This document shows positions 20,818-38,183 of a stretch of 64,000 nucleotides of DNA, piece by piece. Source of the DNA: a virus. Lineage: Duplodnaviria > Caudoviricetes. Made by a program: the position numbers and the translations under genes. The stretch covers positions 1-64,000 of the IMG/VR virus record IMGVR_UViG_3300032030_000047, one strand, 5' to 3'. How positions within the stretch are numbered: position 1 is the stretch's first letter; each line of letters begins with the position of its first letter. The notes below the pieces were generated by a model, which saw only the letters and a program-made list of their open reading frames with translations, was not told the DNA's origin and searched no databases.

Positions 20818-20859
20818 ATTATAGGTACCTCCAAAATGAATTGCGCTTTTCGCGCGAAG

Positions 20860-21520: not shown

Positions 21521-21594
21521 TACCTCTCGTGAGATTCGAACTCACACTGTATGCGTTCTTAGCGCACTATCTCTGCCAATTGGATTAGGGAGGC
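21521..21594 (-). tRNA. tRNA-Leu(AAG), short variable loop
   Basis: GTGCG-CTAAGAA-CGCAT, A73. Confidence 0.8.
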
Positions 21595-21675
21595 AAATTA
21601 CAGGAATTAGTTTCACACTACCTGCTCGTGTGCCACGTCTTTTCAGCTGCTAACTGGAGGCCCGTGTGGTGGGTC

Positions 21676-21761
21676 TGGTGCGCCGGGATGGGATCGAACC
21701 ATCCGAGTCATTGACAGCGGTTTTACGGACCGCCCCGCTACCTTCTACGGACTACCGACGC
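21676..21761 (-). tRNA. tRNA-Tyr(GUA), C33
   Basis: Long variable arm, A73-CCA, loop CCGTAAA. Confidence 0.8.
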
Positions 21762-21764
21762 ATA

Positions 21765-21990
21765 AATTTTCAGATGAAGCCGATCGCTCTTCACTTTAAC
21801 GGAACTGTTACCTTCCGGATCTGTCTCGCAGTATCTTGCGCTCACGCTGTTCATTATAGTCCCTGCTTGTGAGACCCCAGGACTATTACCAACCACTCGC
21901 GTCCCACCGCCTTCTTCAATATCACTTATAGGTAATAACGCTTACGCTCCCTCTTCGCTGATATTGTCATGCGCCAAAGCCTTGTCCGTT
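21765..21990 (-). ncRNA. Candidate structured ncRNA
   Basis: Stems CAATATCA/TGATATTG, ATAGTCC/GGACTAT, CGGAA/TTCCG; no ORF. Confidence 0.4.
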
Positions 21991-21997
21991 GGTAGAG

Positions 21998-22070
21998 AGC
22001 CCCCACTCGGATGCGCGCCGAGGTTTATCGCTTACGAAGCGATTGTACTAGACTGCTGTACGATAGAGGC
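21998..22070 (-). tRNA. tRNA with CGU anticodon (Thr), atypical T loop and U73
   Basis: ATCGC-TTCGTAA-GCGAT; T loop CGCGCAT. Confidence 0.7.
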
Positions 22071-22229
22071 AAATGGGAGAAGTCAGTCATTCCTAATGCT
22101 CCCTGGAGTTCAATTTATATCCCGCCTAAAAATGACACTCATCGGCGGCGTACAAGAAAGTTTTCTTTCTCGGGATCTCTCCCCTTGGTACATAAATATT
22201 ATAACAAAATTTTTATTAAAAGTCAAATA

Positions 22230-24065
22230 TTAATCGAAGCAATCTCCAACATGATTAATTATTACTTCTATACCCAATGGAGTACCATAATCATTAATAG
22301 AAATAAGTTTTTGCCACTTGCCTTCATGGCCTTCCGGTTCTATATAAAGCCATACTTGCCCCTGTTCATCTATTTTTGTTTCCTTAACTTCTTTCGCAAT
22401 AGCTGGAGGAAGTGGTGGAATAGTAGGAGTAGGGGTAGGAGTTGGTGTTGGACTCGGCCGCGGAGTTACTGTAGGAGTTTCGGTTACGACTGTGGATGTC
22501 TCGGTTGGAGTAGGAATTATCGTTGGAGTGGCTGTCGGTATCGTAGGTGTCTCTGTTGGTGTAGGCGTAGGCGTTGGTGTTGGAGACGGAGTAGGTGTAA
22601 CAGAATACTCAACCGCTGGTAGCGGGAAATCGCTAATCTTTGTATCTTGTGGTGTATACAAAGTCGCAGTTGTGTTTGTTAAAAGTGGAATCCCACCTTG
22701 TGATCCGTTGAAATCATATTGTCCATATTCGCCTGCCGCTGTTTGCGGATTACTTAACTTAATACTATAATGCAATTCTACAGAATCGCATAGTAATAGA
22801 TTAGTATTAATAATCCACTCGAAATAATCATTCTCTTCCTCACCGTGATATATTAACGTAAATAGTTCTCCAAAAGAGAATGTTACATTATCACTAGTGG
22901 TCGCATCAATGCGTTCTCCATTCCAAATTACATAAAGTCTACTAGCATCTGGAATAAAGTCCATATCATATTCATTACCTAAATTATCAATACCAGAGCC
23001 CATATAGTCCTTTACATAACTACCTGTAGTAACATACGATATTTCTTTGCCAATATTACTTAAAGAGAAACTTCTGCCGCCATTCAAATATTGCATAAAT
23101 GACTGGGCATATTGGCTTGTTCTATAAGAGAAATCTTCGCTATCGACATAAACTGCATAGCAATTGAAGCCTTTATGCTGTGCATCGACATAAGACATCA
23201 TAGCATAATACAGTGCCACATCTGAAGATACAGCATGAGCAGCCAAATTGCTCCTAATATAGCTAGTCGCATTATTATAATAGTTACGAGGATCCCAATC
23301 CCATCCATGTTCATACAAATCGCCATCGCGATTCATAGCTTTTCTAACTTCGACAAAATATTCGTACCAGTCTGCGGGCGCAGCGTAAGTACCATACTTA
23401 AATAGATATGTGTCTGGCCCGGCGACAATATTGTTTCCATACTGCTGTACTACTACAGTTTCCCCTTCTGTTTTTGTGCCAGCATAGCGTAATTCTCCAT
23501 TCTTTTGGTAAACATGTGTATCTCCATCGCTAAGTATAATTAAATACTTATTGGATGCTGGTACTCCGCTATGATGAGCAAGCATATCTGTACCAACTAG
23601 AATACCAGAATTAAGATTAGTACCACGATGGGTATATTTAGAAGGATGGTTTTTTGCTATTACAGTCCCATCTAGTTGCCTATAAATCTTTGATTTGCCA
23701 TAAAAATATACAATTCCGACATTAATATCATCTCTAGTATCTGCTGCGGACATATATTGCTGTAATAGACGCTCCGCCGCACTATCCATGGACAGAGAAG
23801 CATCTACTACAAATACAATATCATATACATCAACGCTAGTAGTTGGTATTTTTAGCATTATATCAGACTCATAGTTTTCATCCAAATTAGTAGCTGTTTT
23901 AGTAACAGTCACTTTATTCAGATTAGTATGAGCAATTGTTGGTATATTTACCTCACCACTATCTATTGATATTTCTGGGGTGTACTCGTCACTTTCTATA
24001 ATTGTCTCAGCAATACTAGCAAATGGCATCATGAGGGCTGTTAATATTGCTAGAAATTTTTTCAT
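22230..24065 (-). CDS. Secreted vWA-domain protein with Pro/Thr-rich linker
   Basis: Signal peptide, DASLSM MIDAS, LSDGD, (TP)n repeats. Confidence 0.8.
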   Translation of the reverse strand: MKKFLAILTALMMPFASIAETIIESDEYTPEISIDSGEVNIPTIAHTNLNKVTVTKTATNLDENYESDIMLKIPTTSVDVYDIVFVVDASLSMDSAAERLLQQYMSAADTRDDINVGIVYFYGKSKIYRQLDGTVIAKNHPSKYTHRGTNLNSGILVGTDMLAHHSGVPASNKYLIILSDGDTHVYQKNGELRYAGTKTEGETVVVQQYGNNIVAGPDTYLFKYGTYAAPADWYEYFVEVRKAMNRDGDLYEHGWDWDPRNYYNNATSYIRSNLAAHAVSSDVALYYAMMSYVDAQHKGFNCYAVYVDSEDFSYRTSQYAQSFMQYLNGGRSFSLSNIGKEISYVTTGSYVKDYMGSGIDNLGNEYDMDFIPDASRLYVIWNGERIDATTSDNVTFSFGELFTLIYHGEEENDYFEWIINTNLLLCDSVELHYSIKLSNPQTAAGEYGQYDFNGSQGGIPLLTNTTATLYTPQDTKISDFPLPAVEYSVTPTPSPTPTPTPTPTETPTIPTATPTIIPTPTETSTVVTETPTVTPRPSPTPTPTPTPTIPPLPPAIAKEVKETKIDEQGQVWLYIEPEGHEGKWQKLISINDYGTPLGIEVIINHVGDCFD

Positions 24066-24079
24066 TATGCATTACTCCA

Positions 24080-24463
24080 TTACTTGGTTAGTGTTACGGT
24101 TACTCGGAAAATCCAGTCTGCATTATCTGCATTTAGATTAAAACTATAGGTTTCGCCGCCATCTATAGAGAACCAATCTCCATCGGGCGCTTTAGCTTCC
24201 CATCTATAAGACTTGTTATAATCGGCGGGATTATAATAATCGGATTGTTCTGTAGTAACATTGGCAGTAAGCGTTACTGTAGCGCCTTTCTCTAGTGTCT
24301 GATTAGCTTGCGCGCAACTAATTGATACATGCCAACCAGGGTCTGGTAAAGCCATTGTGACATTGGGGTCGTAGCCCTCACTTGTCGCGGTGCCCTCCGA
24401 CAGAGCCGGAATAACTGCAAAACATAGCGCTAGAGTCATAAGTAGTACGATTAGTTTCTTCAT
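24080..24463 (-). CDS. Secreted Ig-like protein
   Basis: Signal peptide, beta-rich with YRWE and FRVTV. Confidence 0.7.
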   Translation of the reverse strand: MKKLIVLLMTLALCFAVIPALSEGTATSEGYDPNVTMALPDPGWHVSISCAQANQTLEKGATVTLTANVTTEQSDYYNPADYNKSYRWEAKAPDGDWFSIDGGETYSFNLNADNADWIFRVTVTLTK

Positions 24464-24562
24464 TGTGTATTCCTCCTTTTATTTTAAAATAAGGACGCCA
24501 ATAATGGCGTCCATACATCGCAGCCAAAAGGCGGTAGGTTCCAAGCTCCGCCTAATGGAAAG

Positions 24563-24646
24563 TCCGGGTGGTGGGATTCGAACCCACAAGGAGCTTCGCT
24601 CCGACAGATTTTAAGTCTGTTGCCTGGGCCGTTCGGCTACACCCGG
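24563..24646 (-). tRNA. tRNA-Leu(UAA), long variable arm
   Basis: Canonical type II cloverleaf. Confidence 0.9.
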
Positions 24647-24740
24647 ATAAAATACAGGATTCGTTCGCCACACGTCTATGGTCAAGCAGAGTATTAAGTG
24701 AAGTAGCTTTCTCATCACTCCTGTAAATTTGATAGTATAA

Positions 24741-24799
24741 AACCCCGTATGCGAACTATCATTGCGCTCTAGAAACGCCTGCTTTGCTGTCTCGGGGAT
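24741..24799 (-). ncRNA. Mini Y-RNA-like element
   Basis: CCCCG/CGGGG stem followed by AGACAGCAA. Confidence 0.5.
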
Positions 24800-24809
24800 C
24801 AATTTACGG

Positions 24810-25345
24810 ATTCTTCATCCGGGATTAATTTATGGGATATTCATCCCATTCTTGATTTCGGGGAATCTCCCCTGCGGCCAAGAGAAGCCTTATCTACGGC
24901 GCGAGAGGCGTGCTAGGTTCTTGACCTAGCGGGTTGCGCTTCGGCGTAGGGGTGGACCAAGCCTTTCAACTAGCCCAAACGGTAGTTTTTCAGTCATACT
25001 GGACATCCTGTAATAGAAAATGCAACTAGTATTCAGCACCATTTCTCGATGCTGGCATCTCCTAATAGGAAGCACGTACTCATTAAGCACATACCACGAC
25101 TAGTTCCGACATTTATAACGCGCGCGTCTCAGTCGTCAGCAATCGCGCTAGATGAATGGTCTATTTTTTACTTGCTACTGCCATCACCATCGAAAGCGCA
25201 AGCTATATATTTATCTAACCCCTATAGTGGGTGGTTTTCGCGTTTTATATACCGATTCGGAAAACATAGAGACCGGTTGTCCGTTTCATATGGTAGAATA
25301 CATCGACCGGTACGGGCGTCCGGTCGGAACGGCTCATACTACCAA
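24810..25345 (-). ncRNA. Candidate large structured ncRNA (~535 nt)
   Basis: No credible ORF; at least 7 hairpins, e.g. CGACCGG/CCGGTCG, CAGCATC/GGTGCTG, GCTAGGT/ACCTAGC, ATGGGAT/ATCCCAT. Confidence 0.55.
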
Positions 25346-25351
25346 AAATAC

Positions 25352-25413
25352 TAGGCACATTAAAAAAACTTTTAATAGCAAGTTATTCCTCATAGGTTTG
25401 CTGCGTGTGCCTA
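25352..25413 (-). ncRNA. Mini Y-RNA-like element
   Basis: TAGGCAC/GTGCCTA stem followed by ACGCAGCAA. Confidence 0.55.
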
Positions 25414-25417
25414 TAAC

Positions 25418-25478
25418 ATGACACCTTATATTTTATCAGAATATATGTAAATGATTATAAAATTGCTGTCGGTGTCAT
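25418..25478 (-). ncRNA. Mini Y-RNA-like element
   Basis: ATGACACC/GGTGTCAT stem followed by GACAGCAA. Confidence 0.55.
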
Positions 25479-25479
25479 T

Positions 25480-25730
25480 TTAATTACCGAGGCCCTCGCA
25501 TATACGTAATATGTGGATACCTCGTGCCTCCTGTACCTTACAGGTCGGTCTGTCTATTCTGTATACATGCTATTTTAGTATCACTCTTTTGGCATAGCTG
25601 CCTCACCACGGCTGTCGTCGCTCACGAGACCTGCGTCCGTAGATAGTATGGGCGTACCATTGCTATCTATTACCACAGCGCCGGACCTCAACCGGCCAGT
25701 CATATCCTGTCAATTCAGGCTTTATGTGGT
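25480..25730 (-). ncRNA. Candidate structured ncRNA (~250 nt)
   Basis: Stems ACCACA/TGTGGT, TAGATAG/CTATCTA, CCTGTA/TACAGG, CGAGG/CCTCG. Confidence 0.45.
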
Positions 25731-25734
25731 TGAA

Positions 25735-25809
25735 TGGTACCCTATCCCGGGGATGATCCGGGCCTTCGTGCTTGAAGGGCACGCGACTTAACCGATTGTC
25801 CAATAGGGC
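25735..25809 (-). tRNA. tRNA-Glu(UUC), C33 and atypical T loop
   Basis: CGTGC-CCTTCAA-GCACG; T loop ATCATCC; CCA. Confidence 0.75.
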
Positions 25810-25901
25810 ATATCAAAGAGGGCACGTTTTATAGTGCGGTGCCCGAGCACTAACACTCTTTCACCAAATGCTGCAGAGGTGAAGGGAATGTTGAAGTAGC
25901 G

Positions 25902-26019
25902 CGGGAGATAGAGGAGTTGAACCTCTCTAGCGCGGTTAATTGTCTGATATAGGGCCTGCCCCTATTATATCTCTTTGGTATCAGGCCAGCCGCGTGCTAA
26001 TCCGATTAGCGAATCTCCC
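25902..26019 (-). tRNA. tRNA-Asn(GUU) interrupted by a 47-nt insert (25940-25986) between positions 34 and 35
   Basis: GGGAGAT/ATCTCCC-G acceptor, CGCGG-CTG|insert|TTAA-CCGCG, AGAGG-TTCAACT-CCTCT. Confidence 0.8.
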
Positions 26020-26070
26020 ATATCTTTCTTACAAATATATTATAATATAATTTTGTAAGAAAGTCAATGA

Positions 26071-26676
26071 TTAAATTTTTTCCCATTCTTCATCGGAATA
26101 AGAATTAATTTCTTTTTTTGTCCTTGGCAAATTCATACTGTCACACCATTTACGAATACTGTTATCTTCTACTCCAAATTGTTTTCCAATTTGAGTAAAA
26201 GGCATAGTTCGAATTAATTGCTTTAATTCTTCTCGTGAAGGTCTTTCACAAGCTCTTCTAGCCTTTGCTGCACAACTTGGACAGCGAATCGCGGCAGAAT
26301 CTATTTGACAATGGCAATCAATACAATAATTTAATTTAGCAGTCATTTTATCATTACGTTCATTAATTAATCTTTGTGCTAATTCATTATTGAACACATG
26401 CTCCGTTGGAGCATCATAATAACCGCTATGCACTCCTCTATGACAATTCGCGCATAATAAAAAACATTTTTTTACTTCATTTAAGTCAGTTTCAATATCA
26501 TGACAAGTTCCTCTTGAAGATATTCCATAATCCTTTTTAGTCGGGTCTTCGTGATGAAATTCTAATGCGTCTGCGAATAAATCAAAACCGCATATCTGAC
26601 ATTTTCCACCTAAAACCTAAATAAGATTTTGTTTTCTTCTTCTACGATAATTACTTACATCTTCTGCTCTACTCAT
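26071..26676 (-). CDS. Free-standing HNH endonuclease with C-terminal DNA-binding segment (201 aa, code 15)
   Basis: GGAGG RBS; MSRAED...LI(Q)VLGGKCQICG...EFHH...LCANCHRGVH. Confidence 0.8.
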
Positions 26677-26760
26677 AATAATTCCTCCTATGAATTAAAA
26701 TTATGGCCGGTAATAGGAGTACCTTCATCTCGTTGGTCATGACTCCAACGCTACCCAAAC

Positions 26761-26878
26761 TAGACGTACTCATAACCGCGCTTCTGCCAATTGAGCGACC
26801 ATCCAATGGCTGGATGGGTTGGATTCGAACCAACACTTGACGGGCTCCCAAAGCGAAGAAATATTGCTGATACGTCTA
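26761..26878 (-). ncRNA. YrlA-like Y RNA (circularly permuted tRNA mimic)
   Basis: TAGACGTA/TACGTCTA stem, TCAGCAA, T arm GTTGG-TTCGAAT-CCAAC, closed acceptor CCATCCA-GCCAT-TGGATGG, D arm, TTATGAG. Confidence 0.8.
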
Positions 26879-26881
26879 AAG

Positions 26882-26953
26882 CGACCTTACGCAGAATTGA
26901 ACTGCGGTTTCAGGCGTGACAAGCCTACGTAATTACCACTATACGATAAGGCC
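26882..26953 (-). tRNA. tRNA-Asp(GUC)
   Basis: Cloverleaf, G73. Confidence 0.9.
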
Positions 26954-27005
26954 AGATGGCGCTTTCGCGCCGTGCATACTAAAAGGTATGCTGTTATGAT
27001 CAGAG

Positions 27006-27077
27006 CGACCTTACAGGGAATCGAACCCTGGTTTTCCGGTAGACAGCCGGATGTAATAACCTCTATACGATAAGGCC
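27006..27077 (-). tRNA. tRNA-Asp(GUC), second copy
   Basis: Same acceptor as 26882 copy, different anticodon and T arms. Confidence 0.9.
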
Positions 27078-27248
27078 ATATAATGCCGAGCACACCCTCG
27101 GCTTGGACTATTAGGGCCGTACCAATACTGGCGCGTATGCTTTAAACTTCTATCACCCTACTGTAAGAGATTATAGTGAGTAGTCGCTCACTAGCAGTAG
27201 GTTGCTAGCCGCGCATCGGTTTAGTCACCGTTTTTGCTAAGGTGAACG

Positions 27249-27321
27249 TAGCGGGAACGGGATTCGGACCCGTGTTTGTTGGGTATGAGCCAACCGTGCT
27301 AGACCTCTGTACTATCCCGCG
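27249..27321 (-). tRNA. Initiator-type tRNA-Met(CAU)
   Basis: C1:U72 mismatch, CTCATAC loop. Confidence 0.8.
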
Positions 27322-27355
27322 ATAAAATTGCCCTACTCCCAACTTCTCATGGGTA

Positions 27356-27730
27356 CGCCGCATATGGAATCGAACCATCTTCTACGCCATCTCTTGGCGT
27401 TTGGGAACTCCATTCCCACCTACGGTTTTCGGGCGCTATACCAAGTCTGCGCTTGGACTACGTGTAATTATCCTCAGTGTCACTGAGTCTCGTTTTACAT
27501 CCGCCGATGCCATACGTATGTAGGAGTTCCTTTGCATTCATGTAGCGTTGGATAGCCATACAAATCAATCCACAGCCTAGCCGAATATTCCTTTATTGAG
27601 CCTTCACACTGCTCAGGGTGGAGAGTCTAGGTATACCGCCTCCCTATTCGCGTGTCACCTAATTGTATTTAAGGGCCGACTAACAACGACTGCCCCTGCA
27701 TCTTTTACCTCACGGCTGGCTTGATGCGGC
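27356..27730 (-). ncRNA. 375-nt RNA with tRNA-like termini (acceptor stem plus T arm)
   Basis: 5' GCCGCAT pairs with 3' ATGCGGC-G; ATGG-TTCGATT-CCAT T arm; multiple internal hairpins. Confidence 0.55.
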
Positions 27731-27735
27731 CATAG

Positions 27736-27808
27736 TCCGCCACCAGGGACTCGAACCCTGAACCAATCGGATATAAGCCGAGTGCTCCACCAATTGAGCT
27801 TGTGGCGG
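27736..27808 (-). tRNA. tRNA-Ile(UAU)
   Basis: CTCGG-CTTATAT-CCGAT, A73. Confidence 0.8.
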
Positions 27809-27973
27809 TTATAATGCAAGTTATTAGGATTTTATTTCTGCACTTAAACGTTTTTATTGAGGTATCTCTAGCGGGACTCTTGGCACTTGCTCCCCATTCC
27901 CAGTCCAAACTGTCATCTTCCCTCATTCAACATAATTATTATACAATAATTTCTGCTGAAAGTCAAATATTAG

Positions 27974-28156
27974 TTAATCAAAGAGTTCAGAAAGTCCTTC
28001 TGTAGAAAAGCCTGCGGATGCGAGAAATCTTGCAAAAGCTTCACACACTTCATCGCGCGGAATACCATTTTCATTTTCTACATCAAAATGAATCTCATTT
28101 CCAGAAACATTGCCATCTTCGTCCTCAAATTCATACCAGAAACTAATTCTTTCCAT
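27974..28156 (-). CDS. Small acidic hypothetical protein
   Basis: GGAG RBS, ORF track. Confidence 0.6.
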   Translation of the reverse strand: MERISFWYEFEDEDGNVSGNEIHFDVENENGIPRDEVCEAFARFLASAGFSTEGLSELFD

Positions 28157-28159
28157 CTT

Positions 28160-28420
28160 TTACTCTCCTTCCCTTTCTTCATTAATTATAGCACAAATTT
28201 CTTCTCTAGTCAAATACTCATCTTCCAATTCATCATAAGAAAAATTCATAATAAAATCGTCCAACATAGCTTCTCCTTTCAGATCAAGAAATTTATGTTT
28301 GCGATTCTGTTCGCAGTAAGGACATGAACCATGATTTCGACAAGAATAATCAAATACTTTCGAGCCATGATAGGGCTTCCGATGTTCTTTCCCAGACTTA
28401 ATAGCCTTATCCAGTGCCAT
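28160..28420 (-). CDS. Hypothetical protein with SCRNHGSCPYC motif
   Basis: First ORF after promoter 28443. Confidence 0.7.
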   Translation of the reverse strand: MALDKAIKSGKEHRKPYHGSKVFDYSCRNHGSCPYCEQNRKHKFLDLKGEAMLDDFIMNFSYDELEDEYLTREEICAIINEEREGE

Positions 28421-28473
28421 CTCTCACCCTCCTTACATATATATTATACACGAAATTTGAAATAAAGTCAAAT

Positions 28474-28808
28474 AAAAAATTCCGTAAATTTGATTAGCTA
28501 GTGGCGCTAGTGCTCAAAGATACGGAAAATTATGGCGCTGAGGTTCGCTATTCCTCTGCCATCGGGCGATATGTCGTGTCGCCTTACGCCTCTCTTCACA
28601 CCTCAAGGATTGGTGAATGCACATCCGTAGCATCAGTACGAACGAGGACTTTCGTGCTCGAATTAACGCTTATAGATATTTTACAGACGCTATAAGTCGT
28701 TGGATACTTTGCTTTCCTAGGCAAGCTAAGACATAGTATCAGTGTCTGAAGTACTTATACGGTGCTTTCATACCGCTTCTCTATTGTCGCGATAGGCTAG
28801 AGAAGAAC
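28474..28808 (-). ncRNA. Candidate structured ncRNA (~330 nt) ending in terminator-like hairpin
   Basis: CTTCTCTA/TAGAGAAG, GATACT/AGTATC, CTTATAG/CTATAAG, GGCGA/TCGCC, TTCCGTA/TACGGAA plus T-run. Confidence 0.55.
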
Positions 28809-28813
28809 CTAAG

Positions 28814-28884
28814 AGCACCATGCGAGACTTGAACTCGCCGCATCTGCTTGGAAGGCAGACATATTTCCGCTATACGAATGGTGC
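28814..28884 (-). tRNA. tRNA-Gly(UCC)
   Basis: Cloverleaf, U73. Confidence 0.85.
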
Positions 28885-28901: not shown

Positions 28902-29825
28902 TTATCTATGTCGACGTTTTACTTCTTCTATTAGACTTTGCTTTAAATATATACGATATAATTTATTCCACACCATTTCATAAAATTCGGGCTTTACTAA
29001 ATAGTAACATACTATACGTAGCCATACTTCAGGTGTATTAGTGCGTCCTGAAATTTTAAAATACCGAATCCCCTTATCAGAAAGCTCTCGCACTCTGTCT
29101 AAAGTAACCATATGTTCGCGCGCGAAAATACCTGCAACACATTCATCTGCAGAAGGTGAAGAACCAGCAGAATCGCAATGAAGAACTTGCTCTTCTTCTG
29201 TAAGAGGCAAATTTTTATACATTTTACTTAACTGTAAATAGTGTTTCGATCTTTCAGGACAATGACTACGACAAGGCTCTGCACAAACAACTTCAATATT
29301 ATTCAAATGTTTCAATTGTTTAATATATTCGTCATCATTATTACAGTTGTAATTCATGACATAGATATTGTTTTTAGTTAATTCATTAACTTTGTCTATA
29401 TCAGTAATATTTAAAGTAGTAGAATAAATAATATCTAATTGTGGATATTCTCTTTCCAAATACTGCTTTAGTATCGGAGAAAACAAGGTTACAGCATCGT
29501 GCGGGCGCATATAAGTATGTAAAAAGTTATTACAATCTGGGTCTAAGACATCATGTTCATCTAAAAGCAAATTAGTACATACATGTCGTATTTGCATAGG
29601 TGTTGTATTAATCCATTGCATAATATCTTGAATTGGCGTAGTATTAATAATATTTTGCGCCTCTCGACCACCGTTCCACATTAGATATGGTGGAAAATCA
29701 TATACGTTGTCCATTACATGATCTGCGATAAATTGCTCTGGATATTGTTGTTTATATTCATATAATAATTTTACCAAAGGAAATTGCCGAATATATCCAG
29801 GAATTGAAAATAATTTATCAGGCAT
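28902..29825 (-). CDS. U32-peptidase-like TIM-barrel protein
   Basis: C-terminal YFKISGR motif, Cys cluster CAEPCRSHC...C. Confidence 0.55.
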   Translation of the reverse strand: MPDKLFSIPGYIRQFPLVKLLYEYKQQYPEQFIADHVMDNVYDFPPYLMWNGGREAQNIINTTPIQDIMQWINTTPMQIRHVCTNLLLDEHDVLDPDCNNFLHTYMRPHDAVTLFSPILKQYLEREYPQLDIIYSTTLNITDIDKVNELTKNNIYVMNYNCNNDDEYIKQLKHLNNIEVVCAEPCRSHCPERSKHYLQLSKMYKNLPLTEEEQVLHCDSAGSSPSADECVAGIFAREHMVTLDRVRELSDKGIRYFKISGRTNTPEVWLRIVCYYLVKPEFYEMVWNKLYRIYLKQSLIEEVKRRHR

Positions 29826-30270
29826 TGTGTGTCTCCAATATTTTTTTTAATTCAGATAAATCTCTCTATTTTTGTATAAAATAAGATAATATTTCACGCG
29901 TAACCAAGAATAATAATTCTTGTAATAAGAATGAATTTGCTTCCTTAGGCAAATTATCATATATATTTAAGACTATATCGACATGACGCGGTTTTCGCGC
30001 CAAAGCACGCAAAAGAAAGTATAATTCTAAATACTATATAGCTATTGGATCTGTAATATAATATAATTCTGCATACTGTTTTGTAAACTGGACAATATAA
30101 TCTCTTAATCGTACATAATCAGTAGTATCTAGATTGCTTTCATAAAATAAATTTCCCCAGTTAATATATGACGGGGCTATCCAAGAATTTAAGTATGAGG
30201 ACATTGTATCAACAGAAGGTACTTTAAATTGCTTCATAGCATAAAGTGCCCTTAATTTGCTAACATTCAT
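29818..30270 (-). CDS. Hypothetical protein (150 aa, code 15)
   Basis: Track ORF 30034-30270 continues through two TAG to a TGA that overlaps the next ATG. Confidence 0.65.
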
Positions 30271-30776
30271 TCAGATATATATTTTTCAGCGAGAGTCATA
30301 CGATCATATTCTTGCTCTTGCTCTAGTTCAGACAGTAATTGATCAATTTCTTCATCGTCCCCAATACTGTGAATTATTAAAGCTAATACATATCTATATT
30401 TAATTTCCGTTTTTAATTGTGTTATTTCTGTTTTATCCGATTCAACTTGAAAAGCTTCTTTTAATTGCGGCAAATATTCTATATTAATACCTTGAATTTG
30501 AAAGATGAATAAAGAAAAGAAATGACATAATACTGTGCGTTCTCCTTCAGTATAGTATTCTTCATATACTTCATCTACAATAGGCTTAAAATAATTATAA
30601 TCGCGCGCATAATCTATTAAATATGCCTCATTACGAATTAAACCAATTACACTAAAAATAGCTCCCATTGGATATTTAAAACGTGGAATATAATTTTTTA
30701 TTAGCTATATTTCATCTTCATTAGGATTTCTTTTAGCATTAAAAATCCTTAATAAGCGTAACTCTGTAACATCCAT
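30267..30776 (-). CDS. Hypothetical protein (169 aa, code 15)
   Basis: GGAGG RBS and ATG 30776, one TAG, joins track ORF. Confidence 0.65.
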
Positions 30777-30788
30777 TTAATTTCCTCC

Positions 30789-31502
30789 TTAACCATTCGG
30801 ATTGTAACCCCAAGCAAATGAACATCCGCCATTAAATGAAGTACACCAACCATTGCAATTAGTTGAACATGTGTCACCGCATCCCTGACAAGCATTACTG
30901 CAGCCTGTACATCCTTTGCAACTACCGCTACAACTGCCACTACAAGAACCAGTGCATGTATTACTGCAACCTTGACAGCTACCTTGACAGCCACCACTAC
31001 AAGAACCAGTACAAGTACCACTACATCCTTTACAAGTGCCAGTGCATGTATTACTGCAACCTTGGCATCCGCCACTACAAGAACCAGTACAAGAACCGGT
31101 ACAACTCCCACTACATGTACCAGTACAACTGGTACAGCCACGACAAGCACCTGTACATGTACTATAACAAAGCCCAGTGCATGAACTATTACAATCGGTC
31201 GAATTGGCCGTTAAGGAATAATTCTCATTAGATGTCAATCTAGTAGCCGCGGCTTGAATAGCATATACTAAACTGCCTTGATTAGCTGTTAGTCCAGTTG
31301 GGCTAATACGATTAATATTACCTACTGTTTCATTAAAATGAGAAATTTTAACAGGACTTCCTGCTGCCATAGTTTCGCTCCAGCCGGTATTATAAGCAGC
31401 AAGTGATCCGTTAAAGCGTCTGCGATACATTTCATTATTAACTCGTGTTTTTAAAGCTTGCATATCACTTGCTGTTAAACTATTTCCAGCTGTTAACGCC
31501 AT
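30789..31502 (-). CDS. CXXX-repeat radical SAM target protein (33 Cys) with ~100-aa N-terminal domain
   Basis: C-x3 and C-x2 periodicity with Ser/Thr/Gly-rich spacers; directly downstream of a radical SAM/SPASM gene. Confidence 0.85.
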   Translation of the reverse strand: MALTAGNSLTASDMQALKTRVNNEMYRRRFNGSLAAYNTGWSETMAAGSPVKISHFNETVGNINRISPTGLTANQGSLVYAIQAAATRLTSNENYSLTANSTDCNSSCTGLCYSTCTGACRGCTSCTGTCSGSCTGSCTGSCSGGCQGCSNTCTGTCKGCSGTCTGSCSGGCQGSCQGCSNTCTGSCSGSCSGSCKGCTGCSNACQGCGDTCSTNCNGWCTSFNGGCSFAWGYNPNG

Positions 31503-31508
31503 GACTTA

Positions 31509-32819
31509 TCACTCCTCGGAATGTTCAAAATCCGCCAACGTGAGCAACATATCATACTCGTCGTCGTCAATTAGATATTTTGCTGTTGTACGGTCTAAAT
31601 AAACAGGCATTCGTTTTTCTGAATGTAACTGTCTAAAAAATTTATTTAAATAATAACTATTAGCTAAAGAGCGAGCGCGTTGCATCCAACAAAGACCTGT
31701 ATCTCGTTTGTCTAAAATACCTCCAAACTTTTGGTAATTCCAAGCTGCACACCAAGAACAACCAGAAGCAACGGAACAATTAAAACATTCATCTGTAGAT
31801 TGAGTACGTCGATTAATTGCTTTCATTTTATACCAATAATCTTTTTCTTTTTCTGTCTGATAAATTCCATGATCTACATTGCCTATAATAATAGGATCTA
31901 CTTCTGTGCCTAAAGAACTAGGCATATAGCGTAGACATGGATATGCATTTCCATCAGGGTCAAAAGCCAACATATCTCCAGTACCACCGCACCAGTTAGT
32001 TAAATTACTACTGAGAAGTGGCTTGCCATAAAATTCTCCAAACATACTCGAAAAAACACCTTGCTTAGATAAAATTTTATCTGCAAGCTGTTTTAATTGT
32101 ATATAATATATCTTTGCTTCCTCTATGGTCCATTTACGTTCATTTATTGGATTACCAACAATAAAAGCGCATTCTTTATCAACAAAAAAATCTACTATTT
32201 CACTCAGCATAGGCAAATTTTCTGGTGAAATTGTAATTTTTGTACCAGGTACTTGGTGTCTTACTGTTCGCCAATCTTCATACGCGGCAATAGCTCTATC
32301 AAAGCTACCATTGCCATCATAATCCTTTCTACAAGCATCATGTACTTGTTTTGGGCCATCAATAGTAATGCAGAGACTTAAGAAACTTAAGAATTCATCT
32401 ACATACTTTTGAAATGCATCTGTAAAATAGAGTAAGCCATTGGTAGAAATGTTAAATCGAAAGTTTGTTGTCCACGGATGATCTAACTCTATACATTTAT
32501 TGAGAAAATATCTACTGCCATACTGAATAACGTCCATATTCATCAGAGGTTCGCCGCCGATAAATTCAATAATAATACCTTTAGTATGATGATTAATTAA
32601 AGTATTTGGATCGTTTTTCGCATAGGCTTCAAATAGTAAGTCCATTCCTTTTTTCATGACTTCTTTTGTCATGAATTTATGTCCTTTATTAATTTGATAA
32701 CAGTAGGAGCAATTTAAACAACAATCATCAGTTACTTGAAACGTTATAGTCGGACAATTGACTTTAGGGTCTGCTGACCTATAACGTTTCATGATATAAT
32801 TATGAAACTCGTGAAACAT
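31509..32819 (-). CDS. Radical SAM/SPASM maturase, CXXX-repeat-target type (copy 2)
   Basis: CCLNCSYC (CxxxCxxC), GGEP, SPASM WCGG...YPC...CFNC...CSWC...C. Confidence 0.9.
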   Translation of the reverse strand: MFHEFHNYIMKRYRSADPKVNCPTITFQVTDDCCLNCSYCYQINKGHKFMTKEVMKKGMDLLFEAYAKNDPNTLINHHTKGIIIEFIGGEPLMNMDVIQYGSRYFLNKCIELDHPWTTNFRFNISTNGLLYFTDAFQKYVDEFLSFLSLCITIDGPKQVHDACRKDYDGNGSFDRAIAAYEDWRTVRHQVPGTKITISPENLPMLSEIVDFFVDKECAFIVGNPINERKWTIEEAKIYYIQLKQLADKILSKQGVFSSMFGEFYGKPLLSSNLTNWCGGTGDMLAFDPDGNAYPCLRYMPSSLGTEVDPIIIGNVDHGIYQTEKEKDYWYKMKAINRRTQSTDECFNCSVASGCSWCAAWNYQKFGGILDKRDTGLCWMQRARSLANSYYLNKFFRQLHSEKRMPVYLDRTTAKYLIDDDEYDMLLTLADFEHSEE

Positions 32820-33112
32820 TAATTATAAAACTCCAATGTATGCTGCGCGAAGTTAAAACTAAAATTCATCCCTGCTCCCTGAGGACGATATTTATTAGCA
32901 ATTTCATTCTTAAGTTTTTCCAAACGAATAGAAAGTTCAATTGCGGCATCCCATTTCTTATCCAGATAAGAAATTTTCAGGCCATCTACTCCTTCATTAT
33001 AATTATACAGTAGATAACTTAATACGCCCATATAACCATTGTACTCGTCAAAAAGTATCTCTACCTTTTCAATGTCCTCGCTAGAAACATCTACAACTAC
33101 TCTGTCTTCCAT
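32819..33112 (-). CDS. Small CXXX-system accessory-like protein (paralog of 34998-35270)
   Basis: True start MEDRVV; shares YxxYMxxLxYL and DKKW...xELE...KY(K/R)PxG with paralog. Confidence 0.7.
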   Translation of the reverse strand: MEDRVVVDVSSEDIEKVEILFDEYNGYMGVLSYLLYNYNEGVDGLKISYLDKKWDAAIELSIRLEKLKNEIANKYRPQGAGMNFSFNFAQHTLEFYN

Positions 33113-33145
33113 ATCCTTTAATCTCCTTTTATATAAAATAATAAG

Positions 33146-33233
33146 CAGCCCCTGAAAGATTCGAACTTTCATAACCTCGGCAGAGGATATAACGGTTTTA
33201 GAGACCGGCGTCTTGCCATTAGACGAAGGGGCT
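33146..33233 (-). tRNA. Amber-decoding tRNA (anticodon CUA), long variable arm
   Basis: AGCCCCT/AGGGGCT-G, CCGGT-CTCTAAA-ACCGT, V arm CCTC-TGCC-GAGG, GAAAG-TTCGAAT-CTTTC. Confidence 0.88.
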
Positions 33234-33234
33234 A

Positions 33235-33261
33235 TAAAAGGGCTGATTCTCGGCTCAGCCC
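33235..33261 (-). terminator. Terminator-like hairpin just 5' of the CUA tRNA
   Basis: GGGCTGA-GCCGAGAA-TCAGCCC-TTTT. Confidence 0.6.
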
Positions 33262-33271
33262 AGAGCCGTCA

Positions 33272-33616
33272 TCAGACCATGAAAATCTTATCGAAAATAT
33301 CAAACAAAGTAGGAATATCCTCGGGATTGGAGCTAGAAAAATGATACGTATGATACTTATTTACAAATGCATTGAGCGCATCCTTATAAGCATTCTGCGC
33401 CTTAACCATCTCCTTACGCGCGGCTTCGACCTTATCAGCCATTGCCTTGCGCTCGGCTGCTTCCTTTTCTTTCTTCTCCTTCTCTTCCCGTAGAGCCTTT
33501 TCCTTTTGAATCTTTTCCAGATTTTCCTGTTCTTTTAGTTCAAATTCAGCACGATTTGCTTCCTCTACTGAATTATAGAACTTACCGGTGCGATCGCTAA
33601 ATACCTTAATAGCCAT
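33272..33616 (-). CDS. Coiled-coil hypothetical protein
   Basis: E/K/A-rich; follows promoter 33681. Confidence 0.7.
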   Translation of the reverse strand: MAIKVFSDRTGKFYNSVEEANRAEFELKEQENLEKIQKEKALREEKEKKEKEAAERKAMADKVEAARKEMVKAQNAYKDALNAFVNKYHTYHFSSSNPEDIPTLFDIFDKIFMV

Positions 33617-33705
33617 ATTACTACCTCCCTATGTAGTAAAAAATATATTTAAGCAAGTTCCTTTCCTTGCTTATACATATATTATACACTGAATTTTGAA
33701 AAAAG

Positions 33706-35001
33706 TCAAGTTTTAGATAGAAGCAATAATTTATTATATTCTTTCAATGTAATCAAATGCATTGCAATATCAACAGGTAAATACATCTTTTTACGTTTGG
33801 CCATATTATGTTTTCTATAATATTTATTCCAATAATAAACGCCAGCAAGAGCTTCTGCACGGTGCATCCAACATATGTTGGTACTACGTTTATTGTATGT
33901 GCCAAATTCATTATAGTTTTCAGCTGAGCACCAGGCGCAACCTGACGCGACAGGACAATCTAAACATTCCTGTGTTGATTGTGACTGTCGAGTAACTTTT
34001 TTCATATCATCATATATAGCCTTATATTCTGGAGTGTTATATATACCATGGACATTGCCGATTACTATAGGTTTACGCTCTGGACTTAGTGAACTTGCCA
34101 TATAACGTAAACAAGGATACGCCAGTCCTTGTGGGTCAAAAGCTAACATTGCAGATGTACCGCCACAATAGTTATTAGTCTCACTTTCTGGAACTGGTTC
34201 TCCTTTGAAGTCAGAAAATAAGGAACTTTCTGCGCCTTCTACTTCAAGCAATCTATCTGCTAACTTAATTAGTAATTTATAATATAACTATGCTTCTTCT
34301 TCTGTCCATTTATGCTCAAATATAGGATTAGCATGAATTGTTGTACAACCCTTAGATAAAAAGAAATCAAATATTTCTCCGATTTTAGGTAGGTTTTCAG
34401 GCGCAATTGTAACTTTAGTATCTGGTATATTATGCTTCTTTACAAGAAACCAATCATTCCACGCGGCCATAGCTCTATCGAAACTGCCAGTACCGCCCAA
34501 ATCTACTCGACAAAGGTCGTGTATATCTTTGGGCCCGTCTATTGTAACATTCATACTGATAAGGCTATGATATTTATCTAAGAATGCTTGTACCTTTGGC
34601 TCAAAATAGAGTAAACCATTTGTACTGATGGAAATACGGAAATTGGTAAGCCAAATATGATCGCGTTCACAGCATTGTTGGATAAAATATTCTACAATAT
34701 AATCCATCACATCTACATTCATAAACGGTTCGCCGCCGATCATATCCAGAATGATACCATATGTATGTTTATTGATGACCATATTCTCGTCATTCTCTTC
34801 ATACAATTTGAATAGTAAGTCAACTGCGTCCTTAGCCACTTCTTTACTCATCATCGCATGACCCTTATGCGTCTGATAACAGTAAGAACATTTTAAACAA
34901 CAATCATCTGTCACCTAAAAAGTGATATTGCGGCATTCTGCCTTTGGATCCTCAAAAGAATATATAGATCTTACTTCCTCTGAATAGTCATGACTTTTCA
35001 T
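33706..35001 (-). CDS. Radical SAM/SPASM maturase, CXXX-repeat-target type (copy 1; 431 aa, 2 in-frame TAG)
   Basis: MKSHDY...ITF(TAG)VTDDCCLKCSYC; fragments 34288-34914 and 33706-34251 join and align end to end with copy 2. Confidence 0.9.
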
Positions 35002-35270
35002 TCTTTGTAAAACACCACCTGGGTATTATCAAAGTCAAATTCATATCGATCCCATTCGCCCTCAGGTTTATATTTAGCTTCAATTGCTGATTTAGCAAGA
35101 TCAAGTTCAATCCATATATCTGCTGCTTCATTCCATTTCTTATCGTAAATATCTGTACTAAAAGTATTAGCAGCCAGATATTCTAACATACTCATATAGG
35201 CATTGTATTTGTAAAATAGACGCCGCACATTTTCACATTCTTCATGTGTAATATCAATTGCTTGCTTCAT
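34998..35270 (-). CDS. Small CXXX-system accessory-like protein
   Basis: 90 aa, ATGA-coupled to radical SAM copy 1. Confidence 0.7.
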   Translation of the reverse strand: MKQAIDITHEECENVRRLFYKYNAYMSMLEYLAANTFSTDIYDKKWNEAADIWIELDLAKSAIEAKYKPEGEWDRYEFDFDNTQVVFYKE

Positions 35271-35331
35271 AAATTAGTCTCCTTAAAAATTATTATAGGA
35301 TAAAGGATACTCCTTCCCTTATCCTATAATA

Positions 35332-35360
35332 ATTATATCATATATGGAGGAAAAAGTCAA
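35332..35360 (-). promoter_or_regulatory. Sigma-A-like promoter of the radical SAM cluster
   Basis: TTGACT-N17-TATAAT. Confidence 0.75.
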
Positions 35361-35764
35361 ATATTTATTTCCTGCCACCCCGCTGGGTAAGCACTTGGTG
35401 ACCAAATATTATTGTCAATTGCGCTTTCATATACTTTGCCTTCAAACATAACGCGGTCGCCGCGCATATATGTGTTAGTACTATCAGGCTGTTCCCATTC
35501 TGGAATTACATCTGGATCTGGGATTAGTACTTTAGCCCAGAGACTTGGTGCGGCAGTAGGAGTCCATGCTTCTTGCGCCGCATGTGATTGAAGACATTTG
35601 TATAATACATTTTCGTATTGTACTCTGTCTCCTTGTAAATATGCGGCAGTAGCGTTCCAGACAGGAAATAACTGGACTGCTTCAATTGAGTCCTCATCGG
35701 ATAAGGATAGGGCTGCTTTTTCTATATAAGGGCGTAGCTTGCGCGCTAATTCAAGTAATGTCAA
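35357..35764 (-). CDS. Carbohydrate-binding (CBM5/12-like) phage protein
   Basis: Two W...Y..GD.V.(Y/F).G/N..Y repeats. Confidence 0.75.
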   Translation of the reverse strand: MTLLELARKLRPYIEKAALSLSDEDSIEAVQLFPVWNATAAYLQGDRVQYENVLYKCLQSHAAQEAWTPTAAPSLWAKVLIPDPDVIPEWEQPDSTNTYMRGDRVMFEGKVYESAIDNNIWSPSAYPAGWQEINI

Positions 35765-36010
35765 TTACTCCACCCCCAATAGTATTTTTGTGGCGGCAAG
35801 CTCCTCCTGTAAAGAGGAGATGCTTGCGGCCTGCTATAACAAATATTCATCCTTGCCATATTCTTTATAGTTATATTTGTAACCAGAAACGGTATGCTCG
35901 CCAACTTCTTCTTCATATGGCTCAACATTAGAAGCGATAAAGACAGAAGTGGCTGTAATTTCGATTGGTTGTGGCTCAACTGTACCATAAATAACTCCGT
36001 AATCTTTCAT
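35765..36010 (-). CDS. Small tail-associated protein (81 aa, code 15)
   Basis: MKDYGVIYG...EYLL(Q)QAAS...LLGVE. Confidence 0.7.
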
Positions 36011-36015
36011 CTTTA

Positions 36016-37962
36016 TCAACCTCCATAGTGTTGCCGCCATTTATTAATGTTGGCTTCGTAGGTTGCGTTCTTAGACGGAATATACATAATACGTCCATTG
36101 AAGTAACGTAGTGTCGCATTCGCGGCAACGTCTGCGCTATAGTTAAATGGGCCTGCTCCATCACCGGAACTATAAAGGCCGCCAATACCGAATAGGTTAG
36201 TACCATTTAAGGCGGTATTAGTCCAAAGTGCGTCACCGACTGGGAAAGCACTATTGGCATTATTGGCGCACTCAATTGGTAGATAAGCCCAAGTATAGTC
36301 TGGATTCTGATAACCCATCGCGGAAATCCAGTTTGGCGCTGCGCCAGGAAGCTGGAATCCTAGTGGAGTTTCACCATGATATGGAATACCACCTTCAGAG
36401 TTGCTACCGCCGCGAGTTGTAATATTAGCAATTAGCCGCCACATGCTACCCCATGGATTTTCCATACCACGATAGCTAATTGCGCGTAAGCCTGCAGTTG
36501 TAACGGTTTCCTTAGTACCATCACGGTCAATAACAGTTTGAGGAGCGGCGCCAGTGCCGTTACCGATACTGGAAGTAGAACCAGTAATAATAGCGCAACT
36601 AGTGGCGTTATTGCGAGCAACATTGACTACACCTTTTTCTAGGGCAGATTGTCCATTCATAGTACCAAATTCAACCATCTCTAGCATCTGATTGGCAGAT
36701 TCAAATTCGAGGTTGGTAAGCTGCCAACCTTCACCACGATTAGATGCCATTGTTTTAACTTGGTTTAGGTTTAGATTTTTGCCGATACCAGTAAAGATTT
36801 TTGCGCCCGCAATAGAGCTGAGTTTATCTTCGGAGAAAGTAACATTCTCATCGTTTAAAAGATATTCATCTGCGCTAGTGTCATAGACGCTGCCTTCAAA
36901 TGCGGGAAGAAGAACGTAATCGAGTTCTTCGTTTCCTAGCTTGAATAGAGGATGAAGCTCAAAGCCTGCGCGCTCATCTGCACTTAGAATTAGACTTTCT
37001 TTTTGTACGGTTACGCCGCGGCTGCCTGCGCTATCTTTGATAAAAGTGCGAGAGTAGTAGAACTTGGGCTGGTAAATCATTACCTGGCCATTAGAGCCAT
37101 CTTCGCGGTAATTAGAATCGCCATAGAAGGCCGTAATTGTGCCATCATCGGCTACATTACAACGCATGCGGCCGCCGTACATGGTGTATCCATTGAAATC
37201 GCTTCCGGCCCTACGACTTGCGGCATCCTGAGTGCGCTCAAAGGACTTATTTTCGTAGTCGATTAGTAAGCCGAGTGTGCCATCGGCGCTGTAAGTACCG
37301 GCTTTTACTAGCGCCTTGATGATTGCTTCTTGTGTGGCATCACCGGCTTTGATGTTTCCATCTGAGCCAACAATAACAATCTTACCGGCGTTTTCAGTGC
37401 CAAGGTTGCTTACTCCGCCAGAGCTGGAGCCGCCGCCAGATGGAATGCGCGCGATTGCGCTATCAACATAGGCTTTAGTTGCAACTGTGGATGTATCGGC
37501 TTTCTGCGCGAGTGCGGCAGTAATAGCCTTTTGAGTCATGCTACCATCTTCGTTATCGCCTGTAGATTTATATAATTTCACTACCTCGGGCATAGTAAAG
37601 GGTGTGGCGTTGTCAGGATAGAGAACTTTATAGCCACGACCATTGTAGGTGTCGGATGAGGTCTGGGTTAGCTCAAAAGCTAACTTGGAAATCTCATCAT
37701 CTACGTCTTCTGTTGTAAGAGTATTAATTTGTGCTTCTTGCGCTGTTTCTAAAGCTTCCTGCGCAGTTGCAAGCAAATCCGCGGCTTCAGATTTTGCCGT
37801 TGCAATTTCAGTCGCAGCATCTTCTACTGTTTGAATTGCCGCTGCTGCATCCTATTCTGCTTTTTCTGCCTTTGCCGCTGCGGCATTAGCCTTAGCAACA
37901 TAAGTTTCGGTTTTTCCTTGTGGAGTCATTGCTTTTGCAAGCATTACATCCAATATATCCAT
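36016..37962 (-). CDS. Tail fibre/receptor-binding protein with C-terminal C-type-lectin (Mtd-like) fold (648 aa, code 15)
   Basis: SYRGMENPWGSMW...GG.Y..G..AG.F...G R motifs; N-terminal extension through one TAG. Confidence 0.7.
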
Positions 37963-38183
37963 TAGCTTTCACCCCCGTTTTCTTCCTCTGTAACGGGAGT
38001 CATACTTTTCCATTGTTTTTGGCTGTTAGCAATAAATACTTCCATAGTATCTACTACTATTGCGACAGATCCCAACGTAATATACTTTGGATCAATAGTC
38101 GCTAAATCTGCAGCGGTGTCGCAGAAATGCTCATAAGTAATTATATTATCAGAGCTACCTCTTTTACTCATTATTGCCGCCAT
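37962..38183 (-). CDS. Small structural hypothetical protein
   Basis: MAAIMSKRGSSDN after GGAGG. Confidence 0.65.
   Translation of the reverse strand: MAAIMSKRGSSDNIITYEHFCDTAADLATIDPKYITLGSVAIVVDTMEVFIANSQKQWKSMTPVTEEENGGES

Follow-up and report, generated by a model that had tools for sequence, protein, structure and literature searches.

A duplicated CXXX-repeat radical SAM cassette next to the tail genes of a TAG-recoding phage, possibly producing an enzyme-stapled late protein

We analyzed a 64,000-nucleotide stretch of phage DNA (positions 1 to 64,000 of IMG/VR record IMGVR_UViG_3300032030_000047; hereafter the window) and focus here on a gene cluster at 28902-35270, in which every gene lies on the minus strand. 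The cluster encodes two radical S-adenosylmethionine (SAM) enzymes with SPASM domains (maturases A and B), a small partner protein ahead of each, and a 237-residue target protein containing 33 Cys residues. We are highly confident that the Cys-repeat protein is the substrate of a CXXX-type maturation system formed by these genes. Sequence comparisons make it an even bet that the cluster represents the catalogued CXXX-repeat system in phage form, making an enzyme-stapled, probably thioether-linked, late protein that is likely tail-associated. Thioether formation, judged by analogy with related enzymes, is narrowly the favored reaction, and we rate the presence of the product in the virion somewhat below even.

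The initial annotation had proposed a CXXX-repeat radical SAM system, and hidden Markov model (HMM) searches bore this out. Maturases A and B, which are 54% identical to each other (E = 1e-173), both align to TIGR04115 over its full length (positions 2–359 of 359), with 347.8 and 342.2 bits, respectively, just short of the cut-off of 350 bits; a standard-code, phage-like relative (L075) scores 464.6 bits against the same model. The second-best family was PapB (E = 2e-45 for A and 4e-42 for B), followed by the SCIFF maturase, while QhpD (TIGR03906) and HxsB are among the further SPASM families matched by both enzymes, and the anaerobic sulfatase maturase family is found among the weaker matches. 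The closest solved structure to maturase B was CteB (5WGG; E = 8e-23). Across 21 aligned homologs, including both window copies, the radical SAM motif CX3CX2C (C33/C37/C40) and seven SPASM cysteines (C277, C295, C345, C348, C354, C357 and C377) are invariant, as is C163; the SPASM cysteines show none of the degeneracy that had been named as a potential weakness of the assignment. Maturase ORFs (open reading frames) of 808–1181 residues were also found (P0090; L043, L044, L049); as LAGLIDADG and Hint domains are present in one cluster, these long enzymes are probably intein hosts.

Partners A and B are likewise paralogous (32% identity, E = 1e-17). Against TIGR04116 (cut-off 50 bits), partner A scored 13.6 bits (E = 0.058, positions 3–89 of 90) and the partner ortholog from a 184-kb contig (L001) 20.5 bits (E = 4e-4); partner B gave no match to this model. 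An AlphaFold2 (AF2) model of partner A, with a predicted local distance difference test (pLDDT) score of 96.6, comprises a strand, a pair of long antiparallel helices and a hairpin of two strands, for which fold searches returned generic helical hairpins only (best Z 8.3; Foldseek E above 0.5). To place the genes in context, we compiled a survey of 52 loci; an alignment-based scan of IMG/VR recovered 47 loci (a single-protein scan gave nothing). A partner homolog adjoins the maturase in 51 of the 52 surveyed, usually overlapping the maturase start.

The target consists of a helical domain of ~103 residues followed by the 33-Cys CX3/CX2 repeat, in which 23 of the 32 Cys-to-Cys intervals are four residues and eight are three residues. 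It scored below the cut-offs of both CXXX-target models (TIGR04114, 17.1 bits vs 20; TIGR04117, 19.2 bits vs 50), matched phrog_6085 (E = 3e-12) and had no match in the copy of Pfam that was searched. In the ESM Atlas, it sits beside clusters named "Modification target Cys-rich repeat domain", which are 67–82% viral, and PF27846 is carried by 25–40% of the members of the clusters neighboring it. A tblastn search of the target against 50,697 phage records returned nothing, probably because of low-complexity filtering. AF2 placed helices at residues 11–27, 53–66 and 75–93 (block-mean pLDDT 63–88). A word-indexed search with the helical domain gave only 2 proteins, compared with 615 cluster representatives from an exhaustive profile search; Cys repeats were present in 103 of the top 150 relatives, with most of the others truncated. 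We conclude that the domain, which occurs almost only with Cys repeats, is dedicated to this system. Across the loci, targets span 130–587 residues with up to 126 Cys, and the helical domain stands before or after the repeat, depending on the homolog. Among family representatives, 77% of Cys intervals are four residues and 20% are three, and the intervening residues are mostly Ser, Thr and Gly, with Gly favored in the middle. Because the Cys spacing and the ~100-residue flanking domain are kept in hundreds of homologs, the repeat is not a chance feature.

Compared with the CXXX system of NCBIfam/TIGRFAMs, the cluster matches it in all three components and in their tight arrangement, with a full-length TIGR04115 alignment, a partner of TIGR04116-like length with a weak match over its full length, and a target with tandem CX3/CX2 motifs. 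It differs in that each component falls below the curated cut-off (348 and 342 vs 350; 13.6 vs 50; 17.1 vs 20), and in being phage-borne, partly dependent on TAG read as Gln, and duplicated in maturase and partner. Moreover, the phage target is a two-domain protein, which in relatives appears as a module of giant late proteins. As far as we found in the literature, the reference system itself has been defined only computationally.

The cassette is widespread among phages. Maturase relatives number in the thousands in metagenomic data (the best 120 clusters are 48–76% identical, mostly 50–62%), and several lie on contigs of 150–185 kb; phage records yielded only uncultured fecal phage contigs (≤37% identity) and unrelated jumbo-phage enzymes. 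The initial annotation had considered such a pathway unusual for a virus. The survey points the other way, with 47 IMG/VR contigs as against 2 of 399 bacterial genomes having a strong TIGR04115 match (a sample of the class of metagenome-assembled genome G005, titled Oscillospiraceae), and with the predominantly viral target clusters described above. One of the two bacterial positives (L075) is itself a phage-like region, bordered by baseplate and tail-fiber genes and, at the opposite end, by an endolysin; the second (L074) has the look of a cellular peptide cluster and features an ABC transporter. A narrow-pattern scan of genome contigs recovered 2 close loci only and is a poor guide to how the system is distributed in bacteria. 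In 39 of the 52 loci we recognized a Cys-repeat target with the helical domain, many of the remainder being short contigs or relatives with an A-type maturase only. The recurrent minimal cassette is target, partner and maturase. The description of the cluster as a full pathway was therefore an overstatement: general co-occurrence is confined to these three genes, the two small proteins downstream of the target are present in few close relatives, and the U32-like gene is adjacent in one other contig. We saw no protease or exporter in the minimal phage cassettes that were annotated, no protease is generally tied to the cassette, and no PqqD-like domain was found among the Pfam matches.

Conservation in related phages, the lack of which would have counted against the assignment, was observed in close relatives (L001, L077) and in the IMG/VR loci; wherever neighboring genes had been annotated, the cassette is mostly placed among genes for tail fibers and baseplate. 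In the window, it adjoins the tail module as had been stated: just upstream lie the CBM5/12 protein, a 91-residue protein and a 648-residue tail protein (phrog_5302, E = 9e-49). Tail or tail-fiber proteins stand on both sides of the cassette in L020 and L022; in L043 it follows an 824-residue tail-fiber protein, and in L028 it precedes PhoH and an endolysin. The gene order of L077 is exactly that of the window, including the U32-like gene, and the order in the 184-kb contig L001 is Lys/Glu-rich gene, tRNA-CUA, partner, maturase, 245-residue target, 171- and 158-residue proteins, partner and maturase.

The two modules belong to distinct lineages. In a tree of 42 maturases, the A-type enzymes, which follow the CBM5/12 gene, form one clade that is sister to the B-type enzymes; the A clade takes in L008, a copy dropped by our script as a duplicate of window maturase A. 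B-type maturases, including window maturase B, are immediately followed by a target, and maturase A has no adjacent target in the window or in its orthologs. About a dozen close relatives are A-only, carrying the tail protein, 91-residue gene, CBM5/12 gene, partner A, maturase A, Lys/Glu-rich gene and tRNA-CUA and no free-standing target. Since the A-type enzyme is kept in relatives that lack a stand-alone target, the two maturases need not share a substrate.

A candidate substrate emerged from a complete 188-kb relative (G001) with a single CXXX-type maturase. Scanning for period-four runs of five Cys codons identified one true Cys stretch genome-wide, a 25-Cys CX3 segment at residues 2017–2117 of a 2284-residue ORF containing 39 TAG codons (L081, 5780-12634, minus strand). 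A Hint/intein-type domain (PF14890, E = 2e-7) directly follows, which suggests self-cleavage just past the repeat; this link between A-only relatives and a Cys repeat in a giant late protein adds to the distinctive features of the window summarized below. The 480 residues preceding the stretch had no tblastn match in phage records, and the neighbors of the ORF are 627 and at least 1779 residues long. In a second relative (G002), a Cys stretch lies within another large TAG-rich ORF, and a further complete genome (G004) encodes a single maturase together with three free-standing targets in tandem. In the 87.6-kb record that contains the window, the 237-residue target is the sole Cys repeat found, and no homolog of the giant Cys-repeat proteins was detected. 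On these comparisons, late proteins appear to carry the Cys repeat as a module, and it is reasonable to suppose that A-type enzymes would serve embedded stretches and B-type enzymes free-standing targets.

The host of the cluster is a large gut-type phage that reads TAG as Gln, a feature missed in the initial gene models, which listed the right genes and overlooked that maturase A and both small hypothetical proteins contain in-frame TAG. The source record, an 87.6-kb IMG/VR phage contig estimated to be 48% complete, shows the recoding clearly. Translation with TAG as Gln turns the large minus-strand genes at 38–64 kb into long ORFs, and each of the eight late genes checked holds 4–12 in-frame TAG codons. 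TAG terminates none of the 26 genes checked. Five gene families had TAG columns, and in four of them these columns are enriched 5–20 fold in Gln among the sequences without the TAG. TAG makes up 24–47% of Gln-like codons in the structural genes (38–64 kb) and 5–29% in maturase A, the two small genes and the tail protein; it is absent (0%) from the U32-like gene, the target and both genes of module B, as well as from sampled genes at 1–28 kb. TAG use thus falls across the cluster (28902-38000 vs 38000-64000). The only interruptions of the maturase A ORF are TAG codons at 34915-34917 and 34288-34290, the first of which (ITF-TAG-VTDDCC) aligns with a Gln of its paralog (ITFQVTDDCC), and only a Gln reading of TAG yields the intact enzyme; under the standard code it is split into three pieces. 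In L001 and L077, the orthologs hold 6–10 TAG codons each. As maturase A and both small proteins require TAG suppression and the orthologous operons are full of TAG, the operon appears to belong to the late program.

A tRNA-CUA gene lies 470 nt downstream of maturase A, within the cluster and between modules A and B. Its position is conserved in L001 (8577-8667), L004 (3079-3169) and many other relatives. The gene is 89–91 nt long in the window, L001 and L004, always beside the 114-residue Lys/Glu-rich gene. In alignments, the codon decoded by this tRNA acts as Gln, an oddity given its type II shape. Both the tRNA and the Lys/Glu-rich gene had been left out of the initial list of cluster genes. 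The two occur together in 17 loci, including relatives without the B module, and the Lys/Glu-rich protein, which had no informative family match in NCBIfam, Pfam or PHROGs profile searches, sits within the cluster but probably does not belong to the system.

We propose the following mechanism. Each SPASM enzyme would work with the helical-hairpin partner encoded just upstream, which may bind the helical domain or the repeat and present it to the maturase. A 5'-deoxyadenosyl radical, together with the auxiliary clusters, would then join Cys sulfurs to nearby carbons, turning a flexible Gly/Ser/Thr-rich repeat into a rigid, redox-insensitive stapled rod with many intramolecular thioethers. Module B most likely modifies the adjacent 237-residue target, with the three-helix domain as recognition or docking element. 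Module A, a lineage-wide paralog, might act on the same target or on a Cys stretch of a large late protein encoded in the rest of the genome. The product would be made late and would probably reside in or be attached to the tail-fiber apparatus, and it is unlikely to be a small exported peptide. Thioethers would outlast the reducing environment of the gut, where disulfides would not. A tentative extension, which we consider possible but doubtful, is that, in phages of anaerobes, a tail or fiber part is a rod with Cys at every fourth residue, converted by a phage radical SAM enzyme into a ladder of thioether staples. The repeat would serve as a portable element, standing alone with its docking domain in the window and, in relatives, placed close to the C-terminus of giant late proteins before a self-cleaving Hint domain, and the A and B enzymes would be specialized for its embedded and free-standing forms. 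We know of no earlier virion protein cross-linked by a radical enzyme.

Characterized SPASM enzymes offer partial precedents for this chemistry. PapB, which forms thioethers between Cys sulfur and the Asp beta-carbon in freyrasin, likewise acts on short-period Cys repeats (CX3D); here, however, the score against the PapB family is 155 bits (cut-off 340), the +4 position is the next Cys, with no conserved Asp, and the phage substrates are far longer. CteB, the SCIFF (thermocellin) maturase of structure 5WGG, has the same radical SAM core and a SPASM domain with two auxiliary clusters. Its leader peptide is bound by an N-terminal recognition domain, whereas the phage enzyme is accompanied by a separate 90-residue helical-hairpin protein. 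All three of PapB, CteB and QhpD join Cys sulfurs to carbons, and QhpD, likewise of the SPASM type, introduces several Cys thioethers into a protein that remains within a larger assembly (PMC10114670). The QhpD family (TIGR03906) was matched at about E = 1e-22, a distant relationship, and its substrate QhpC, the gamma subunit of quinohemoprotein amine dehydrogenase, is small, with few specific links and no long repeat. In the HXS system, the radical SAM enzymes HxsB and HxsC and the small HxsD mature the repeat protein HxsA, which blocks phage DNA entry (PMC13128918). The resemblance lies in the pair of SPASM enzymes, the small helper protein and a substrate of short tandem motifs whose mature form is a protein and not a peptide antibiotic. 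HXS is, however, bacterial, periplasmic and defensive, HxS motifs are not Cys repeats, and the HxsB match is remote (E = 1e-17 to 1e-22).

Several observations weigh against a stapled, virion-associated product. In the repeats of the family representatives, no Asp, Glu or Thr acceptor of the PapB/CteB type is conserved, and AF2 gave no confident structure over the repeat of the target (pLDDT near 40). Fold searches found no usable relative of the helical domain among solved structures (best Z 5.2) and no match of the partner to the canonical PqqD-like recognition element. PHROGs assigned no function and no recognized virion family to the 2284-, 627- and 1779-residue proteins of G001. The target, maturase B and partner B contain no TAG and could precede the late phase. 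Regions by tail-fiber genes are common sites of cargo genes, so placement alone is no proof of a virion role, and the record covers only 48% of the genome. Nevertheless, placement, substrate size and the embedded versions taken together favor a virion-associated product, probably in the tail fibers.

The same evidence bears on the alternatives. Were the product of the RiPP type (peptide made by ribosomes and modified post-translationally), the helical domain would act as a long leader, and the cross-linked core would be cut, with the U32-like protein as a possible protease, and set free at lysis to act on competing bacteria or phages as an antimicrobial or signal. The enzymes are indeed closest to ranthipeptide and sactipeptide maturases, and the helical domain, confined almost entirely to proteins with Cys repeats and found at either end of them, resembles dedicated leader and follower peptides; an ABC transporter stands beside the bacterial relative L074, and a U32-family gene is coupled to the operon both here and in L077. 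We nonetheless regard this as unlikely, as cores of 130–480 residues and a stretch in a 2284-residue protein are unlike any known RiPP, the cassette lies repeatedly inside tail-fiber modules, and the annotated minimal cassettes are free of protease and exporter genes. The U32-like gene is missing from 50 of the 52 loci, and the characterized U32 relatives (TrhP, RlhA and UbiU/V) are tRNA, rRNA and quinone hydroxylases, not leader peptidases. The matured repeat protein could instead be a conflict effector, used HXS-like for superinfection exclusion or against host defense. This would agree with the shared parts list of two SPASM enzymes, small helpers and a short-motif repeat protein (PMC13128918), with HxsB being among the families matched by both maturases, and with the variability of the locus, which has a YcaO cluster in place of module B in L004. 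It is distinctly unlikely, given that the first 30 residues of the target, inspected by eye, contain no hydrophobic, signal-peptide-like segment, that the cassette is embedded in and co-oriented with late structural genes, and that the Cys stretches of relatives belong to giant late proteins.

A metallothionein-like repeat binding metal or Fe-S clusters, with the enzymes performing Cys oxidation or cluster insertion, would account for a Cys density of 25%, for CX2C/CX3C spacing as in metal-binding proteins and for the lack of a conserved thioether acceptor, and the anaerobic sulfatase maturase family, which oxidizes Cys, is among the weaker matches. We judge it very unlikely: the best matches are, by a wide margin, thioether-forming peptide maturases, and the conservation of a dedicated enzyme and helper with each target implies covalent modification. 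The remaining alternative concerns maturase A alone. We considered and rejected its reading as a broken standard-code gene, on the grounds of TAG-only stops, the tRNA-CUA, Gln-enriched TAG columns and TAG use across the window. A decaying pseudogene, with only module B in operation, would explain why the standard code cuts the gene in three, but is extremely improbable: both stops are TAG, one of them aligned with a Gln of the paralog, in a phage with in-frame TAG in eight late genes, no TAG terminator among 26 genes, a nearby tRNA-CUA and Gln-enriched TAG columns, and orthologs with 4–10 TAG codons at other positions keep every catalytic Cys.

The cluster otherwise has the composition first described, with a paralogous pair of radical SAM/SPASM enzymes, paralogous small partners, the 33-Cys protein, two hypothetical proteins and a U32-like protein, all co-oriented (Table 1). 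Consecutive ORFs adjoin or overlap all the way from partner B through the U32-like gene, suggesting a single transcription unit; maturase B ends 7 nt before the target. A longer, 117-residue ORF of partner B overlaps the tRNA-CUA gene, making the start at 33112 more likely. The CBM5/12 gene is kept at the same spot in 13 loci.

Table 1 Features of the radical SAM cluster and its immediate surroundings in the window
Feature	Positions	Strand	Basis or remark
CBM5/12 protein, 135 aa, two CBM5/12 modules	35357-35764	minus	between tail protein and partner A
Partner A, 90 aa	34998-35270	minus	stop overlaps maturase A start (ATGA)
Maturase A, 431 aa, radical SAM/SPASM, 2 TAG	33706-35001	minus	TIGR04115, TAG=Gln reading
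Lys/Glu-rich protein, 114 aa	33272-33616	minus	conserved with tRNA-CUA gene
Suppressor tRNA, anticodon CUA, 89 nt, long variable arm	33145-33233	minus	ARAGORN
Partner B, 97 aa	32819-33112	minus	start at internal Met
Maturase B, 436 aa, radical SAM/SPASM, no TAG	31509-32819	minus	TIGR04115
Target, 237 aa, 33 Cys	30789-31502	minus	Cys counts, weak CXXX-target HMM matches
Accessory protein, 169 aa, 1 TAG	30267-30776	minus	read-through ORF
Accessory protein, 150 aa, 2 TAG	29818-30270	minus	overlaps both flanking genes
U32-like protein, 307 aa, last gene of run	28902-29825	minus	PF01136

The 169- and 150-residue accessory ORFs exist only with TAG read-through, and neither protein had a family match in NCBIfam, Pfam or PHROGs. 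Homologs of the 169-residue protein directly follow the target in L001 (171 residues) and L077 (167 residues). The 150-residue protein has a weak homolog in L001 (158 residues, E = 2e-6), and a 152-residue gene with no sequence match occupies its position in L077. The U32-like protein matched PF01136 at 37.3 bits (threshold 22.4; E = 2.4e-9) over positions 117–191 of 233 only, and no NCBIfam model. Its family comprises 65 metagenomic relatives, with C185, C189, C217, H195 and an FKISGR motif invariant in the 16 that were aligned. The gene overlaps the 150-residue gene by 8 nt, and L077 has the same order with a 309-residue U32-like gene. Elsewhere, U32-like genes lie beside genes for peptidyl-tRNA hydrolase (PTH2), a methyltransferase and a kinase in a 184-kb contig, and between PhoH and gyrase in another; here, the gene borders a tRNA island. 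By analogy with its hydroxylase relatives, the U32-like protein would be no less likely to act on RNA than on the Cys-repeat protein.

The island holds 23 further tRNA genes at 16204-28884 (minus strand), giving 24 tRNA genes in all, and one of its members (20163-20237) has a four-base anticodon (aaga) to which ARAGORN assigned no amino acid. A 507-residue protein encoded at 9630-11153 (minus strand) matches phrog_850 (RNA-binding protein, E = 1e-110), and in a relative (L076) a DUF2828 protein is encoded near the U32-like gene, a peptidyl-tRNA hydrolase and a kinase; the phrog_850 protein and the DUF2828 neighborhood point to an RNA repair or modification module. In the 185-kb relative L004, a 596-residue YcaO-domain protein and four unknown genes (3259-8728) replace module B and the target, and the A-type partner and maturase follow these genes. 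The locus thus appears to swap peptide-modification cassettes.

The type of system described here is already catalogued in NCBIfam and Pfam, and our literature searches returned no paper on CXXX chemistry or its phage context, on phage ranthipeptides, or on radical SAM enzymes with tail fibers. What is distinctive of the window is the TAG recoding, the duplicated modules that differ in their dependence on it, the tRNA-CUA in the operon and the extra accessory genes; the window thereby presents a biosynthetic operon that straddles the border between standard-code and TAG-recoded genes and encloses the suppressor tRNA. In the collections searched, the cassette is common in phages, rare in bacterial genomes and located in tail-fiber modules. 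If the product is indeed a stapled virion component, it would represent a new class of post-translational chemistry for virus particles and would provide enzymologists with a family of long, repetitive natural substrates. As a redox-proof substitute for disulfides, such staples would also explain how phages of strict anaerobes can stabilize extracellular fibers without disulfide bonds.

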